A stretch of DNA of 7,017 nucleotides from Escherichia coli (GCF_003334385.1 NZ_QOWN01000074.1); one strand, 5' to 3'; positions 1-4,746 are shown, numbered from the stretch's first letter. Notes: generated by a model from the letters alone, not told the origin. Numbers and translations are program-made.

Positions 1-55
1 TGTTCAGGCTGGCGTCAGTGGAATGAAGTCTGGTGAGTGAGATGATGAGTGAGAC

Positions 56-253
56 TCACCGGTTCTGGTGCTGAAGCTGCAGTTGGCGCAGGGTACGGAT
101 ATCCTCTCTGGCCTGTTCGATACAGGGCAACAGTGCTGCTGAATCCGTTTTATCCTCATTGTTGTCAAAGATAATTCCCGATTCGCAGTCGATATTGTCC
201 TGCAGCCACGCAATCAGAATATCCAGTGCGGTTTCCGTGGTTAATGATTTCAT
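56..253 (-). CDS. DUF957-like small protein (about 65 aa), last gene of the CbtA/CbeA-associated module
   Basis: Track ORF 56..298 (-). Protein from the internal Met (MKSLTTETALDILIAWLQDNIDCESGIIFDNNEDKTD...) matches my memory of small DUF957 proteins found downstream of cbtA-type loci. Start placed at ATG 251-253 because an AGGAA Shine-Dalgarno-like motif lies about 5 nt upstream and the longer form (start 298) would overlap the upstream gene by 34 nt. Stop TGA at 56-58. Confidence 0.7.
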   Translation of the reverse strand: MKSLTTETALDILIAWLQDNIDCESGIIFDNNEDKTDSAALLPCIEQAREDIRTLRQLQLQHQNR

Positions 254-264
254 GTTGTTCCTGG

Positions 265-753
265 TTACCAGTTGAAAGTGGGTAAACCCGGCAGGCATTC
301 AGCGCTGGCATCCAGATGAATGAGACTGACGCCATAACGTCGGGTAAGTGTGATAACCAGACGACGGAACGTTTTTGACAGCCCCAGGCGTTTAAGCCGC
401 AGAACCGGATATGACCACGCATCGGTACGTAACAGATATCCGCTACCTGTGAAATGAATCCATTCTGATTCACCAACGTCACTGGTCTGATGCGACAGCG
501 AGTACAGCCAGGCGTTATCCTTTTCCGTGATATGTGCGGTACTGCAGCGTATGCCGGCAAGGGTTGCAAACGGTGGTAGTGTGCAGGTTGACTGTTGGTC
601 GGATTCCTCCACCACGCGGAGTGAATAACCGTTTTCAGCGACCTTGTTAATCAGTTCAGTGAGATTAACACCATCGACGTCAACGACAATTCGCCCCATG
701 TTCAGTGCCTGCACATTAATTCTGTCGGCTTCCAGCATCAGGGAAAGTTTCAT
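265..753 (-). CDS. DUF5983-like hypothetical protein (162 aa), encoded immediately downstream of the CbtA-family toxin
   Basis: Track ORF 265..753 (-), [29 protein letters not shown]... Its ATG (751-753) overlaps the toxin stop TGA (750-752) as ATGA, implying translational coupling. Position and size match the gene usually following cbtA paralogs. Family name is from memory. Confidence 0.75.
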
Positions 754-1124
754 CGTTTCTCCGGATGCTTACCCAGGGTAATGTTATTTACCGTTCTGTA
801 ATTGTCGCGGGTCATCAGGCCGGTCGCCCGGCGAGCCCGGAGGATATCAATACTGTTTATTAACTGAGAGCGGGGACAAGTGCTGAATCCCGGCTGGTCG
901 GTACGCACCAGCGCGTATTTTTCCACGAGAAAATTCACCGCATCACACAGTGAAATGCCAGCTTCAATATGCTGCTCAATCACACGTTCATCGGCGAACG
1001 GTGTGTCATTCAGTGTAAGGCCGTAATGCTGGCCCAGTAGTCGGGAGAGCAGAGTCTGCCAGATGGTGACGGGAGACGGGCAGCTCGATGCCTCCCGTAC
1101 GTGTGTATCGGGTAATGTTTTCAT
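750..1124 (-). CDS. cbtA: CbtA-family toxin (YeeV/YkfI/YpjF paralog group; type IV TA toxin that inhibits FtsZ/MreB polymerisation), 124 aa
   Basis: Track ORF 750..1124 (-). Protein MKTLP...[64 protein letters not shown]...[17 protein letters not shown] is near-identical over most of its length to E. coli K-12 YeeV/CbtA as I recall it. Shine-Dalgarno-like AGGAAA about 11 nt upstream of the ATG. I cannot tell which paralog it is, so the symbol is a family-level label. Confidence 0.92.
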
Positions 1125-1213
1125 ACTGAAGGTTTTCCTGATATGCAGAGATGAAAAATGGAAAAGTGGCGTGGTGAAAGCACCAGGCCGGAGCAGAAGG
1201 TTATTCCGGTGGT

Positions 1214-1582
1214 TTACTTTTTCGTTTCGGGCGTCGGATAAACAGCCAGATAAACGTAACCACCGCTACCGAGAGTGTCAGCTTTGCAGGTCAGACCTTT
1301 TGCATACAGCGTGACGGTATGCTGATGGCGGGGATTCAGTTCACCGCTGGTGAGCATGAGTTCCAGTTGTTTCATCAGCAGCGGAAAGGCCTGGTCCAGG
1401 TGGTACGCATCTGCATCGCTGAACAGGCCTCTGATACCGGCGCGGTCGGCAAGGTAATGCAGGCGGTTACCCTCCTGCACCAGACGGGCGCCGAAACAGG
1501 GCGTCACTGTGCAGGGTAGTCCCCACCAGGGATGGTCGTCATTGTCATCGGGATGCGTTGTCCCGGAAAGTGTGTCTGACAC
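1214..1582 (-). CDS. cbeA: CbeA-family antitoxin (YeeU/YafW/YfjZ paralog group), 122 aa, GTG start
   Basis: Within track ORF 1214..1690 (-). Sequence from [52 protein letters not shown]...[31 protein letters not shown] matches K-12 YeeU/CbeA as I recall it (K-12 begins MSDTLPGTT). The GTG at 1580-1582 aligns to the K-12 start and has a GAGGA Shine-Dalgarno about 7 nt upstream. The in-frame ATG at 1688-1690 (158-aa form) lacks a convincing RBS. An 89-bp spacer separates it from the toxin gene. Confidence 0.88.
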
Positions 1583-1744
1583 GATAAAATCCTCACAGAA
1601 AATCGGTGAATGATAGTTTAACGATGACGGGTCAGCCGGCGCGCAGACCGGCTTCGGTAAAGGTGTATTCGTTGATGAGCAGGACCTCATCCACAGCGGC
1701 GTCTGAGCTCAGCCAGTCGTACTCGTTTTCCGGGTGACGGAACA

Positions 1745-1966
1745 TCAGTTCAGGGTGACGCTCATCAGCCGGACATACGGACCAAAACTGTCCTTACGGC
1801 GTTCTGCAAACACGGCCAGCACACCGGGAATATCCTGCACTTCACGACCGGTATACGCTTCAGCACTGCCGTGCCAGCGGTATTTGCCGGTACAGAACGG
1901 AAAAAGACGGGATGCCGGATGCTGACGGTGAATACGCATGGCTTCGCCACGGGTGATGATTTTCAT
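1745..1966 (-). CDS. DUF987 small protein (YeeT/YkfH/YpjJ family), 73 aa
   Basis: Track ORF 1745..1966 (-), MKIITRGEAMRIHRQHPASRLFPFCTGKYRWHGSAEAYTGREVQDIPGVLAVFAERRKDSFGPYVRLMSVTLN. Matches my memory of YeeT-type proteins and sits between the radC-like gene and the antitoxin as in K-12 cryptic prophages. AGAGG motif about 10 nt upstream of the ATG. Confidence 0.85.
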   Translation of the reverse strand: MKIITRGEAMRIHRQHPASRLFPFCTGKYRWHGSAEAYTGREVQDIPGVLAVFAERRKDSFGPYVRLMSVTLN

Positions 1967-2028
1967 AGTGGGATACCTCTGAAGACAGAAGATAAAAGTG
2001 AAAACAGGTGTGATGTGGTTGTAACGGG

Positions 2029-2505
2029 TTAAAGCAGACCATGTTCGGCAAAGGAGAAAACCTGGCTGCCACCGATTATCAGATGGTCCGGCACCCGGAT
2101 ATCCACCAGGCCCAGTGCCTGTACCAGACGTTCCGTGATAAGGCGGTCTGCCTTGCTGGGTGTGACTTCACCGGACGGGTGATTGTGTGCCAGCACCACA
2201 GCAGCGGCATTGTGATACAGGGCGCGTTTAATCACTTCCCGGGGATGGACTTCCGTGCGGTTGATGGTGCCGGTGAAGAGGGTTTCACCGGCAATCAGCT
2301 GATTCTGGTTGTTCAGATACAGCACCCGGAACTCTTCACGCTCCAGTCCCGCCATGTTCAGAATCAGCCATTCCCGTGCCGCATGCGTGGAGGTGAAGGC
2401 CACGCCGGGTTCATGAAGATGGCGGTCCAGGGTTTTCAGGGCCCGCTGAATGAGGCTGCGCTCGCCGGGCGTCATGTTTCCGGGCAGAAAGGAAAGCTGT
2501 TGCAT
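2029..2505 (-). CDS. RadC-like JAB/JAMM-domain protein (YeeS/YkfG/YfjY family), 158 aa
   Basis: Track ORF 2029..2520 (-). Contains the JAMM metal-binding signature ...AAVVLAHNHPSGEVTPSKADRLIT... (H-x-H-P-S-G ... D), intact. Start chosen at the second ATG (2503-2505, MQQLSFLPG...) because GGAGA lies about 9 nt upstream and the resulting length matches K-12 paralogs. The first ATG (2518-2520) directly abuts the upstream stop and is an alternative. Confidence 0.88.
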   Translation of the reverse strand: MQQLSFLPGNMTPGERSLIQRALKTLDRHLHEPGVAFTSTHAAREWLILNMAGLEREEFRVLYLNNQNQLIAGETLFTGTINRTEVHPREVIKRALYHNAAAVVLAHNHPSGEVTPSKADRLITERLVQALGLVDIRVPDHLIIGGSQVFSFAEHGLL

Positions 2506-2520
2506 TGTACTTCTCTCCAT

Positions 2521-3006
2521 TCAGTCGATGATGCGCATAATGGCGCTGCATTCCGGATGCTGCAGGGCGTAATCCCGCAGCCGGTAATAATGGACCGTCA
2601 TGGCATAACACTCCGTACGACAGGCATGATGACTGTACGTCATCAGACAGGCAGCAATGCCGGCAGCTTCCGGACTCATTTCAGCGCGGTTACCGTTCAT
2701 GGCATTGAACAGTACCCATGTTTCGTCATCATCGTCATCCGGTTCGGGTGCCATAAATGCCCCGCCGTTGTTCAGGGTGTACAGATTCCAGATACCACCG
2801 CAGTAGTCTTCACACAGACGGTCCATCCAGCCGAAGACACGGGGCTCCAGGGTCACCCACTGTGGAATGAGGCCAAAGTGCTGCGGCCAGAAGCTGATGC
2901 GCTGTTCATCAGGGACTATGGTGGCAACCAACTGAGGCTGGTCATTCCCTGATGCAGCGGTTACGGAAACAGAAGATGTGGTGGAATTATGTGAAATGGT
3001 TTTCAT
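2521..3006 (-). CDS. Antirestriction protein, ArdB/KlcA-like (YfjX/YafX family), 161 aa
   Basis: Track ORF 2521..3006 (-), with AAGGAG Shine-Dalgarno 8 nt upstream of the ATG. Contains an acidic run PEPDDDDDETW and the motif FGWMDRLCEDYCGGIWNLYTLNNGGAFMAPE that I associate with this family. Sits immediately upstream of the radC-like gene, as antirestriction genes do in CP4-type islands. Family call is from memory and gene order. Confidence 0.75.
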   Translation of the reverse strand: MKTISHNSTTSSVSVTAASGNDQPQLVATIVPDEQRISFWPQHFGLIPQWVTLEPRVFGWMDRLCEDYCGGIWNLYTLNNGGAFMAPEPDDDDDETWVLFNAMNGNRAEMSPEAAGIAACLMTYSHHACRTECYAMTVHYYRLRDYALQHPECSAIMRIID

Positions 3007-3060
3007 GAAATGACTCCTTAAAGGACAAATAAATGCGTGGTTTTCAGGGTAATGGCTGAA

Positions 3061-3879
3061 TCAGCGCAGGCTCTCCAGCAGGGTTTCCGCCATCACCCAC
3101 AATGCGCGGTTGAGCTTAATGTCAGTGTCAATGCTGTGAATGGCACGGGTATGGATACGTTTTCCTTTAGCGCTGCGACCTGAAATTCCGCCTTTCAGCA
3201 TATTCTCCTGAATGGTCTGATAAGCACTCCACAGGTCCTTACCGTAATCCTCCCGGCGTCGTGGCGTCAGAATGTCGGCGGTGGTGACGGGCTGATGTTC
3301 GTCACCATAACGGTAAGTCAGTGCCGCCTGTGCCAGCGCCTGGCGTGCCGGTGGCGGCAGAATCAGCGACTGCATGGCATCACGCTTTTCCTCAATCCGG
3401 TCAAACACGCCCACCACCTTGTAAGCCCCTTCAATGACTCTGTCCACCACATTTCCCCGGTGCGGAACACGCACTTCCCCCAGAGACTGACCACAGACGC
3501 ATCCGTTCTGGCAGACGAACCTGAAGTAACCCGGCAGCATCTGGTAGCTGGAGGTACCGTCATGAGAGTTGAGCAGAATAATTTCAGGGACATGTTCTCC
3601 GTTTATCTCTCCGGCCCGCCGCAGACGCAGCATGTGTTTTGTGTATCCCCGGCGGCCCGGGTCGCGCACACGGGTCTGGCAGGCGAAGAATGGCTGAAAG
3701 CCTTCCCGCTGCAGGCTTTCCAGTACGGTGATGGTGGGGATGTACGTATAGTTCTGGCTTCGGGACGTGTGTTTATCTTCCCCGAAAATCCCCGGCACAT
3801 AGTGCATCAGTTCTTCGTGTGTCAGCGGACGGTCACGGCGTATCTGGTTCGCATAACCAAAACGACTGGCTAGTCGCAT
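3061..3879 (-). CDS. DUF932 domain protein (YfjQ/YafZ family), 272 aa
   Basis: Track ORF 3061..3879 (-), MRLASRFGYANQIRRDRPLTHEELMHYVPGIFGEDKH...SHDGTSSYQMLPG...KLNRALWVMAETLLESLR. Closely resembles K-12 YafZ/YfjQ as I recall them. Strong AAGGAG Shine-Dalgarno 5-6 nt upstream of the ATG at 3877-3879. Stop TGA at 3061-3063. Confidence 0.85.
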   Translation of the reverse strand: MRLASRFGYANQIRRDRPLTHEELMHYVPGIFGEDKHTSRSQNYTYIPTITVLESLQREGFQPFFACQTRVRDPGRRGYTKHMLRLRRAGEINGEHVPEIILLNSHDGTSSYQMLPGYFRFVCQNGCVCGQSLGEVRVPHRGNVVDRVIEGAYKVVGVFDRIEEKRDAMQSLILPPPARQALAQAALTYRYGDEHQPVTTADILTPRRREDYGKDLWSAYQTIQENMLKGGISGRSAKGKRIHTRAIHSIDTDIKLNRALWVMAETLLESLR

Positions 3880-3916: not shown

Positions 3917-3955
3917 AATAAATGAAAAAGCCACGTCTCCCGGAGAAGACGCGGC
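3917..3955 (-). terminator. Rho-independent terminator downstream of the DUF905 gene
   Basis: On the minus strand: GCCGCGTCT-TCTCCGGG-AGACGTGGC (9-bp stem with one G.U pair, plus-strand 3930-3955) followed by TTTTTCATTTATT (plus-strand 3917-3929). Lies in the intergenic region between the DUF905 stop (3979) and the DUF932 start (3879). Confidence 0.6.
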
Positions 3956-3978
3956 CTGATGGGTGAAATGAATGACGT

Positions 3979-4212
3979 TTATTGTCTGAGAAGACCGTCA
4001 CTGGCGAGCCGCGTATTAAGCACCTTTCCGGCATCGGGTTCAGAATTCCGGCAGCGCCAGCGTCGCTGACCTTCCGCGTTGCGGATAACCCGACGGAAAT
4101 GCATTCCCGGGTCATCCTGGATAAACACATTGCGGTAAGCGGTTATGACAGCAACCGCCTGCCCGTATGAGAAAGATCCTTCAGCCAGGACATACTCTGT
4201 GTAACCCGGCAT
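3979..4212 (-). CDS. DUF905-like small protein (YkfF-like), 77 aa
   Basis: Track ORF 3979..4212 (-). Motif [29 protein letters not shown] resembles the conserved core I recall for DUF905 proteins in K-12 cryptic prophages. AGGAG Shine-Dalgarno about 9 nt upstream of the ATG. Flanked by terminators on both sides. Confidence 0.72.
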
Positions 4213-4225
4213 ATCTGTTTTCTCC

Positions 4226-4266
4226 TGATAAATAAAAAGCCTCTGCCACGCGTTGTGACAGAGGCT
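4226..4266 (-). terminator. Rho-independent terminator downstream of the signal-peptide protein gene
   Basis: On the minus strand: AGCCTCTG-t-CAC-aacgc-GTG-g-CAGAGGCT (plus-strand 4238-4266), a GC-rich stem of 8+3 bp, followed by TTTTATTTATCA (plus-strand 4226-4237). Located 25 nt after the stop of the 4291..4746 gene and 25 nt before the DUF905 start. Confidence 0.65.
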
Positions 4267-4290: not shown

Positions 4291-4746
4291 TCAGTTAACG
4301 TTTTTTCCGGAAACGGTAATCAGCAGTGGATGGTAGTCCTGGGGATTGAAAACCGATAACGGCAGACTGACACGATGGCCGTTACTTTCTTCAGTTGCTT
4401 TGATGATTTCGGTTGTGGCGACATTTTCCACGCACTCCGTTTCCAGAAATGCGTCTGTGGTTCGCGTGGCATTACTGTCACCAAAAGCTTCCGTTTCCAT
4501 TTTTCTGGTCACCAGCGTCTGACCATATTTGTCTTTGAGTTGCAGAGTGATGGTGAGGGGGCCAAATCCTTCATCGTTTCCGCCATTATCCAGCCGGAAC
4601 TGGTAAGCACAAATATTTCCCGGGAGCCATATCGTATCTGTATTGCGTATACTGATGTAACGTTGATCCTGTGCCCGGAGTGGGGCAGACCACGTTAACC
4701 CCAGAATGAAGGCGGTAATCATGCAGGTTTTGAACAGGTGAATCAT
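4291..4746 (-). CDS. Small secreted/periplasmic protein of unknown function, 151 aa, with predicted Sec signal peptide
   Basis: Track ORF 4291..4746 (-). N-terminus MIHLFKTCMITAFILGLTWSAPLRA/QDQ has a typical n-h-c signal peptide with an AxA-like cleavage site and no lipobox. Mature part has two Cys (possible disulfide). GAGAGG Shine-Dalgarno about 8 nt upstream of the ATG. Lies 75 bp downstream of the large membrane protein gene with no terminator between them. I recognise no family. Confidence 0.65.
   Translation of the reverse strand: MIHLFKTCMITAFILGLTWSAPLRAQDQRYISIRNTDTIWLPGNICAYQFRLDNGGNDEGFGPLTITLQLKDKYGQTLVTRKMETEAFGDSNATRTTDAFLETECVENVATTEIIKATEESNGHRVSLPLSVFNPQDYHPLLITVSGKNVN

Follow-up and report, generated by a model that had tools for sequence, protein, structure and literature searches.

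Among the closest described systems to the locus reported here are the gene sets carried by three elements of Escherichia coli K-12: CP4-44 (yeeR-yeeS-yeeT-cbeA-cbtA-yeeW), CP4-57 (yfjX-yfjY-ypjJ-yfjZ-ypjF, also termed lfgABCDE) and CP4-6 (yafX-ykfG-ykfH-yafW-ykfI). The CP4-57 set has been described as one operon (PMC10846083), and CbtA/CbeA is a type IV toxin–antitoxin pair that has been characterized experimentally in K-12 (PMC5371832, PMC5624674). The present analysis concerns a 7017-base stretch of E. coli chromosomal DNA (NZ_QOWN01000074.1, assembly GCF_003334385.1; hereafter the window), in which eight open frames, all on the minus strand, occupy positions 56–3879 and encode, in gene order, DUF932, ArdB/KlcA, a RadC-like JAMM protein, DUF987, CbeA, CbtA, DUF5983 and 'DUF957'. 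We read this region, with a probability of roughly 65%, as the intact end-cassette of tRNA-linked (P4-integrase-type) islands of the CP4-44 group, forming one transcription unit of about 3.9 kb that would serve the element. Co-transcription of the genes, activity of the window copy and the roles given below to DUF932, DUF987, DUF5983 and DUF957 are what we infer from the comparisons that follow. The cassette itself is already known and ordinary; thousands of E. coli genomes have it annotated.

Comparison with the K-12 paralogues, a check proposed in an earlier note made from the sequence of the window, assigns the region to the CP4-type module, nearest to CP4-44. Gene order and strand are the same in the two loci, Ag43 and a YeeR-like gene lie upstream, and amino acid (aa) identity is 97% to YeeS (RadC-like protein), 97% to YeeT (DUF987 protein), 92% to CbeA and 88% to CbtA. 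The differences are nevertheless considerable. The K-12 CP4-44 locus lacks IrmA, DUF905, DUF932 and ArdB (tblastn), its yeeR lies directly before yeeS and overlaps it, YeeW, the DUF5983 counterpart, is truncated to 64 aa and DUF957 is a broken remnant, whereas none of the eight genes is interrupted in the window. Judged from its sequence, the closest K-12 paralogue is itself the decayed, cut-down form. The CP4-57 and CP4-6 sets share the core order of ArdB, RadC-like protein, DUF987, antitoxin and toxin, but their proteins are 60–82% identical to those of the window, several genes lie between DUF932 and ArdB, and there is no DUF5983 or DUF957 downstream.

The eight genes and their constraint

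The genes of the cassette, and the stump of a deleted gene that lies among them, are as follows (SD, Shine–Dalgarno motif; E-values after the Pfam family).

3061–3879, minus strand: DUF932 protein, 272 aa, first gene of the unit; Pfam DUF932, 4.3e-50; SD AAGGAG
2521–3006, minus strand: ArdB/KlcA-family antirestriction protein, 161 aa; Pfam Antirestrict (PF03230), 1.3e-35; SD AAGGAG
2029–2505, minus strand: RadC-like JAB/JAMM metalloprotease, 158 aa; Pfam RadC (PF04002), 8.8e-43; SD GGAGAG
1745–1966, minus strand: DUF987 protein, 73 aa, YeeT paralogue; Pfam DUF987, 4e-38; weaker SD AGAGG
1632–1744, minus strand: 3' stump, the last ~37 codons and the stop, of a deleted 214-aa gene; from alignment with the strain S13 locus (L007 3070–3795)
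1214–1582, minus strand: CbeA/YeeU type IV antitoxin, 122 aa, GTG start; Pfam CbeA_antitoxin (PF06154), 5.7e-51; SD GAGGA
750–1124, minus strand: CbtA/YeeV cytoskeleton-binding toxin, 124 aa; Pfam CbtA_toxin (PF06755), 1.3e-59, full-length model; weaker SD AGGAA
265–753, minus strand: DUF5983 protein, 162 aa, with N- and C-terminal domains; Pfam DUF5983_N, 2.4e-27, and DUF5983 C-terminal, 1.1e-19; SD GGAG
56–253, minus strand: 'DUF957' small protein, 65 aa; RefSeq name; own SD AGGA and ATG

That eight genes stand here in canonical order with uninterrupted frames, as the earlier note had it, is borne out by the reading of the open frames and by Pfam. The family labels fared slightly less well: seven of the eight were confirmed by Pfam (concatenated proteins; E-values of ~1e-19 to 1e-59, far beyond chance), while the label 'DUF957' is simply what RefSeq calls the counterpart of this protein in EH41, a strain with 99.7% DNA identity to the window. 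Plausible Shine–Dalgarno motifs precede all eight genes, as had also been claimed, and are strong before six and weaker before DUF987 and CbtA. The spacings, in gene order, are 54, 15, 62, 162, 89, −4 and 11 nucleotides (nt). For CbeA the start chosen was the GTG at 1582, in agreement with the annotation of RefSeq relatives and with YeeU; a 158-aa form from the ATG at 1690 was rejected as an artefact of the open upstream frame. The RadC-like protein starts at the ATG at 2505 (another possible start, the ATG at 2520, lies directly against the ArdB stop) and 'DUF957' at the ATG at 253 (an 80-aa form from 298 overlaps DUF5983). An NCBIfam scan of the proteins gave matches for RadC alone, PADLOC defence models gave none among nine proteins, and no RNA family was found in the window with all Rfam families at E≤1.

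Eight further E. coli copies (L007–L014), with 90–95% DNA identity, were sampled, giving nine copies with the window. All eight genes are intact in each of the sampled copies (9/9 with the window). The ratios of non-synonymous to synonymous substitution (dN/dS; Nei–Gojobori, nine copies) are 0.12 for DUF932, 0.23 for ArdB, 0.13 for the RadC-like protein, 0.07 for DUF987, 0.22 for CbeA, 0.14 for CbtA, 0.24 for DUF5983 and 0.13 for DUF957. A more distant copy is found on p17277A_477, an IncHI2A conjugative plasmid of Klebsiella quasipneumoniae, in which the eight genes are again all intact and in the same order, with DUF905 before them. This copy differs in being plasmid-borne, in its aa identity of 58–75%, in a 29-nt DUF5983–DUF957 spacer, and in two extra small open reading frames (ORFs) flanking ArdB (L020 9247–9465, 72 aa, and 9966–10220, 84 aa), which are absent from the E. 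coli copies. Between the window and the plasmid, the proportion of non-synonymous differences (pN) is 0.16–0.28 and that of synonymous differences (pS) 0.61–0.75, with synonymous sites near saturation. Because pS is near saturation while pN is low, and dN/dS lies between 0.07 and 0.24, purifying constraint at the protein level applies to all eight genes, the four of unknown function among them. The claim that the module is maintained rather than decayed thus holds, on the intact genes of the nine E. coli copies and the Klebsiella plasmid together with these low ratios.

Two antisense ORFs were also considered, at 2041–2952 on the plus strand (303 aa, opposite ArdB/RadC) and 3295–3873 on the plus strand (192 aa, opposite DUF932). 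They are broken or shortened in three of the other E. coli copies (L009, L012 and L013) and in the Klebsiella copy, and were therefore set aside as by-products of codon usage.

Putative entry and addiction halves

The cassette would serve the mobile element rather than the cell, and its genes can be assigned provisionally to two halves. In the entry half, DUF932, ArdB and the RadC-like JAMM protein, with DUF905 before them, resemble genes of the leading regions of conjugative plasmids and would help incoming island DNA to survive in a new host. The addiction half would comprise CbeA–CbtA, then DUF5983, with its probable translational coupling to cbtA, and then 'DUF957'. CbtA is predicted to bind FtsZ and MreB, so that division and elongation would stop, and CbeA to counteract CbtA.

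DUF932 is a large family, with 5338 cluster representatives and invariant residues at P29, C123, N125, H140 and G230. The AlphaFold2 model of the window protein is of high confidence (predicted local distance difference test score, pLDDT, 93.3); it has no informative solved structural neighbour in the PDB, and its neighbours in the AlphaFold Database include 'F plasmid protein 32-like' proteins. By tblastn, 5000 or more plasmid records contain a DUF932 homologue of ~62% aa identity, and 89% of these plasmids are conjugative; for ArdB/KlcA homologues the figures are 4724 records and 76%. On the IncF plasmid pfEC.1-3 the order is ssb, DUF905, psiB, hok, DUF932, SLT transglycosylase and traM, in the leading region beside oriT, whose presumed role is early establishment in the recipient. 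The likeness to the island cassette lies in the homologues of DUF932 (62% aa identity) and of DUF905 (46%, next to ssb). The sampled IncF stretch lacks matches to ArdB, RadC, DUF987, CbeA, CbtA, DUF5983 and DUF957, however, and its toxin system is of the hok type whereas that of the island cassette is type IV. More distant DUF932 genes stand in other mobile-element settings, with no fixed partner (a ParA-ParB-TopB-methylase context and a phage-like contig).

The window ArdB matches the PDB structure 2wj9 (ArdB, ORF14 of a CFT073 island) at 1.4e-100 and KlcA (2kmg) at 8.4e-21. In the ArdB region of pathogenicity island II of uropathogenic E. coli CFT073, for which the ArdB protein alone was compared, the protein is near-identical over 161 residues and is likewise island-borne. 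In vivo, CFT073 ArdB blocks restriction by all four main type I families (PMC2836571).

The RadC-like protein keeps its JAMM signature, as the earlier note had observed: all metal-site residues can be read in the translation (E90...H107-N-H109-x7-S117-x2-D120; aligned to PDB 2qlc, 5.7e-25). It scores 150.2 bits against the TIGR00608 subfamily (NCBIfam cut-off 133.85). The match to the full-length RadC equivalog (212 positions) extends over 88–211 alone, the C-terminal 124 positions, and its score of 160.1 falls short of the 180-bit cut-off; the protein is therefore the short, JAB-only form of mobile elements. Its identity to YfjY/LfgB is 77%, and LfgB reportedly degrades the antitoxin MqsA and shares a transcript with the neighbouring genes for ArdB, DUF987, antitoxin and toxin (PMC10846083). 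By analogy, an MqsA-degrading role may carry over from LfgB to the window paralogue.

CbeA matches the YeeU structure 2h28 in the PDB at 3.7e-76, and its gene lies directly upstream of cbtA on the same strand, with an 89-nt gap. CbtA keeps F65, the residue that contacts FtsZ. K-12 CbtA binds FtsZ and MreB independently, and all three K-12 toxins hit the same surfaces of both proteins (PMC5624674). For the DUF987 protein, a function as DicA antirepressor was considered and rejected; the paralogues YeeT, YkfH and YpjJ were without effect (PMC10448788).

The start of DUF5983 and the stop of cbtA share 4 nt (ATGA); the spacing is −4 in seven of the nine E. coli copies and in the Klebsiella plasmid, and −1 in the other two E. 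coli copies. This suggests translational coupling to the toxin. A search for DUF5983 homologues gave near-identical E. coli clusters only, among the 120 matches listed, and a structural model built with the available homologues (83–99% identical) had a pLDDT of 38.1 and no usable fold.

The 'DUF957' ORF has no match in the current Pfam library, even when scanned alone or at E≤10. It is 72% identical at the aa level to the Klebsiella plasmid copy, with pN 0.16 and pS 0.64. A family filed in AntiFam as a spurious frameshifted phage protein, ANF00264, is reported always to adjoin DUF5983 and cbtA, and a programmed frameshift has been proposed for it (bioRxiv 10.64898/2026.06.09.728211); 'DUF957' may be this family. 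At window positions 265–298 on the minus strand, the DUF957 frame is −1 relative to DUF5983 over a 34-nt overlap that holds the canonical slippery heptamer GGGTTTA. Across ten copies, however, the DUF5983–DUF957 spacer is 11, 16, 17, 19 or 29 nt, the relative frame varies, and GGGTTTA is present in only three; what is conserved instead is the ATG with a purine-rich Shine–Dalgarno motif. Since neither spacer, frame nor heptamer is conserved in the nine other copies, a programmed −1 frameshift from DUF5983 into DUF957 was rejected as unsupported and the heptamer looks accidental. The conserved ATG and ribosome site, set against this variation, argue instead for a separately initiated, constrained gene. 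On sequence conservation, 'DUF957' is taken to be a real gene under constraint, though one that lacks a current Pfam model.

Island setting, unit boundaries and neighbouring genes

The window is matched in 5030 of 5426 complete genomes, the best matches being 99.7–99.8% identical across all 7017 bases. At least 80% of the length of the cassette is covered in 4263 of these genomes, at 15114 places (~13,000–15,000 copies), with a median of 3 and a maximum of about 16–18 copies per genome. Its sub-blocks occur in a ratio near 1:1:1 (cbeA-cbtA at 13509 places, DUF5983-DUF957 at 12610 and DUF932-ArdB at 13140).

In EH41 the cassette stands at the far end of an island of ~90 kb, opposite the integrase. 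The island starts at tRNA-Leu (leuX) with a tyrosine integrase and carries Dpd, fec, Ag43 and many insertion sequence (IS) elements; it is an IS-ridden mosaic with pseudogenes. Its border is an imperfect direct repeat of the leuX 3' end (L001 19500–19565), ~0.5 kb beyond DUF957 and adjoining nanS. Other copies of the cassette adjoin tRNA-Ser; of those in K-12, the CP4-6 copy is at thrW and the CP4-57 copy at the distal end of that element. The mobile-island setting proposed in the earlier note thus draws its support from the leuX, integrase and direct repeat of the EH41 island, and not from inside the window itself. Between the border repeat and DUF957, EH41 has nothing but remnants of two genes, one DUF4942/methylase-like and the other a regulator.

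The genes upstream of the cassette and the terminator-like hairpins are as follows.

3979–4212, minus strand: DUF905 gene, directly upstream of the cassette; PF06006, 1.7e-15
4291–4746, minus strand: gene for IrmA (interleukin receptor mimic protein A), upstream of DUF905; PF18673, 9.6e-36
4822 to >7017, minus strand: large YeeR-like gene, of which the 3' 2.2 kb (732 codons) is present, cut by the right window end; 838 aa in EH41
3918–3957, minus strand: intrinsic-terminator-like hairpin (3928–3957) with tail TTTCATTTAT, between DUF905 and DUF932; 13-bp stem, free energy (dG) −22.6 kcal/mol, z −5.6
4228–4266, minus strand: terminator-like hairpin (4238–4266) with tail, after IrmA; dG −26.3 kcal/mol, z −7.0
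1–21, minus strand: 5' arm and loop of a terminator-like hairpin after DUF957, cut at the window edge; complete in EH41

The hairpins separate IrmA, DUF905 and the eight-gene region from one another. Both of those that lie wholly inside the window carry the tail TTTYATTTAT, a motif with two occurrences against 0.03 expected, and each is followed by an AGGAG ribosome site. The hairpin after DUF957 reads GCCAGCC-TGAACA-GGGCTGGC with the tail ATTTTCATTTAT in EH41 and folds more weakly (minimum free energy −16.8 kcal/mol for a 61-nt stretch, z −2.6). Because terminator-like hairpins lie on both sides, the eight genes form one candidate unit of ~3.9 kb, and the proposed mechanism would have them expressed as a single transcript bounded in this way.

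Relative to EH41, the window carries 12 additional bp just downstream of the DUF957 stop, at positions 34–45 (plus strand); this insertion, TGAGTGAGATGA, nearly duplicates the neighbouring TGAGTGAGACTCA. When the window ends (last 418 nt and first 320 nt) were aligned with EH41, this insertion and one adjoining substitution were the only differences. Among the upstream genes, IrmA was found in only two of the eight other sampled E. coli copies. The YeeR-like protein has glycine-rich hydrophobic stretches, and its sole Pfam match is weak (C19orf12-like, E 0.037).

Weighing the explanations

Several observations tell against an intact, functional cassette of the kind proposed. The first concerns completeness. 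The 162-nt spacer between DUF987 and CbeA holds the stump of the 214-aa gene, of which ~550 bp of the 5' part has been deleted; the gene is intact in strains S13 (L007 3125–3769) and 488 (L012 3123–3767), and its protein has no Pfam, PDB or PADLOC match. In addition, six of the eight sampled islands have a DUF4942 gene after DUF957 (intact in four, frameshifted in two), of which EH41 keeps only a 150-nt fragment. The description of the module as complete, with every gene intact, was therefore overstated. As to its setting and expression, no integrase, tRNA or direct repeat lies within the 7017 bases, and that context comes from the 99.7% identical EH41. The region upstream of DUF932 showed no sigma-70-like promoter, and a promoter scan gave seven sites against 5.8 expected, which is not above chance and allows no promoter to be named. 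Among the known parts, CFT073 ArdB did not inhibit EcoKI in vitro (PMC2836571), and residue 15 of the window CbtA is Cys (1080–1082, minus strand), the substitution (R15C) that abolishes MreB binding by K-12 CbtA (PMC5624674). Finally, no oriT, ssb, psiB or tra genes occur in the window or within 20 kb in EH41.

Some of these points can be accommodated. The contrast between inhibition of type I systems in vivo and the lack of inhibition of EcoKI in vitro implies that ArdB acts indirectly (PMC2836571). Cys15 is shared by YkfI, YpjF and all eight of the further E. coli copies that were sampled, with K-12 Arg15 as the outlier, so no defect of CbtA can be inferred from it. Since oriT, ssb and psiB are lacking, the cassette is not a leading region and the likeness is one of analogy; it may work like a leading region but is not one. 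The suggestion of an establishment or anti-defence plus addiction cassette therefore stands in part: the known parts fit, there are leading-region homologues by analogy, and the CbtA/CbeA pair is present, but the plasmid hallmarks oriT, ssb and psiB are not.

A bolder version of the end-cassette reading can be offered only tentatively. The toxin–antitoxin pair could be a four-gene system, with DUF5983 and 'DUF957' as partners (for example as sensor or regulator of toxin release), and, separately, DUF932 could be a leading-region establishment or anti-defence protein common to IncF plasmids and E. coli islands.

It is rather unlikely that the cassette is instead a domesticated module of benefit to the host, whose genes are kept for aid under stress, for instance through degradation of a host antitoxin by the RadC-like protein that turns RpoS on or through slowing of growth by CbtA, and not for island transfer or maintenance. 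In K-12, YfjY/LfgB reportedly not only degrades MqsA but also confers protection against H2O2, acid and heat, and the lfg operon is repressed by MqsA (PMC10846083); purifying selection would fit a host benefit equally well. Those data, however, concern a 77% identical paralogue in one laboratory strain. The cassette is, moreover, repeated within genomes as paralogues (median 3 copies, at most 16–18), always at island ends, and the whole of it is found on conjugative plasmids, where homologues of DUF932, DUF905 and ArdB are concentrated. This pattern of multiple island-end copies and conjugative plasmids is better fitted by selection at the level of the element than by host benefit.

We regard as improbable an account in which only cbeA-cbtA is selected and its neighbours persist through linkage, recent spread and gene conversion among paralogues. 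Identity to the window does vary by block (in L007 and L011 it is 99.6% for DUF932 and only 83–85% for DUF5983), which indicates recombination between paralogues, and the K-12 toxins function without DUF5983 and DUF957. Against this, dN/dS is 0.07–0.24 for each gene taken separately, and all the genes are intact in the Klebsiella plasmid copy at 58–75% aa identity and with nearly saturated synonymous sites, a distance over which linkage alone would not stop nonsense mutations and frameshifts. The view of the locus as a decaying cryptic remnant, an inert fossil with frames open by chance in one strain, could draw on the loss of DUF932 and ArdB and the truncated yeeW of K-12 CP4-44, on the deletion scar in the window copy and on the DUF4942 fragment, many IS elements and pseudogenes of EH41, but it is largely refuted by frames open in nine of nine E. 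coli copies and in the Klebsiella plasmid, by omega (dN/dS) well below 1 throughout, and by retention of the JAMM motif and F65, and is hardly tenable.

For the end-cassette reading, two parts of the cassette, ArdB and CbtA/CbeA, have already been characterized experimentally. Half of what is a very common accessory cassette of E. coli is nevertheless without known function despite clear purifying selection. DUF932 and DUF905 tie the ends of islands to the leading regions of plasmids, and this offers a testable hypothesis for how non-conjugative islands may become established after transfer.

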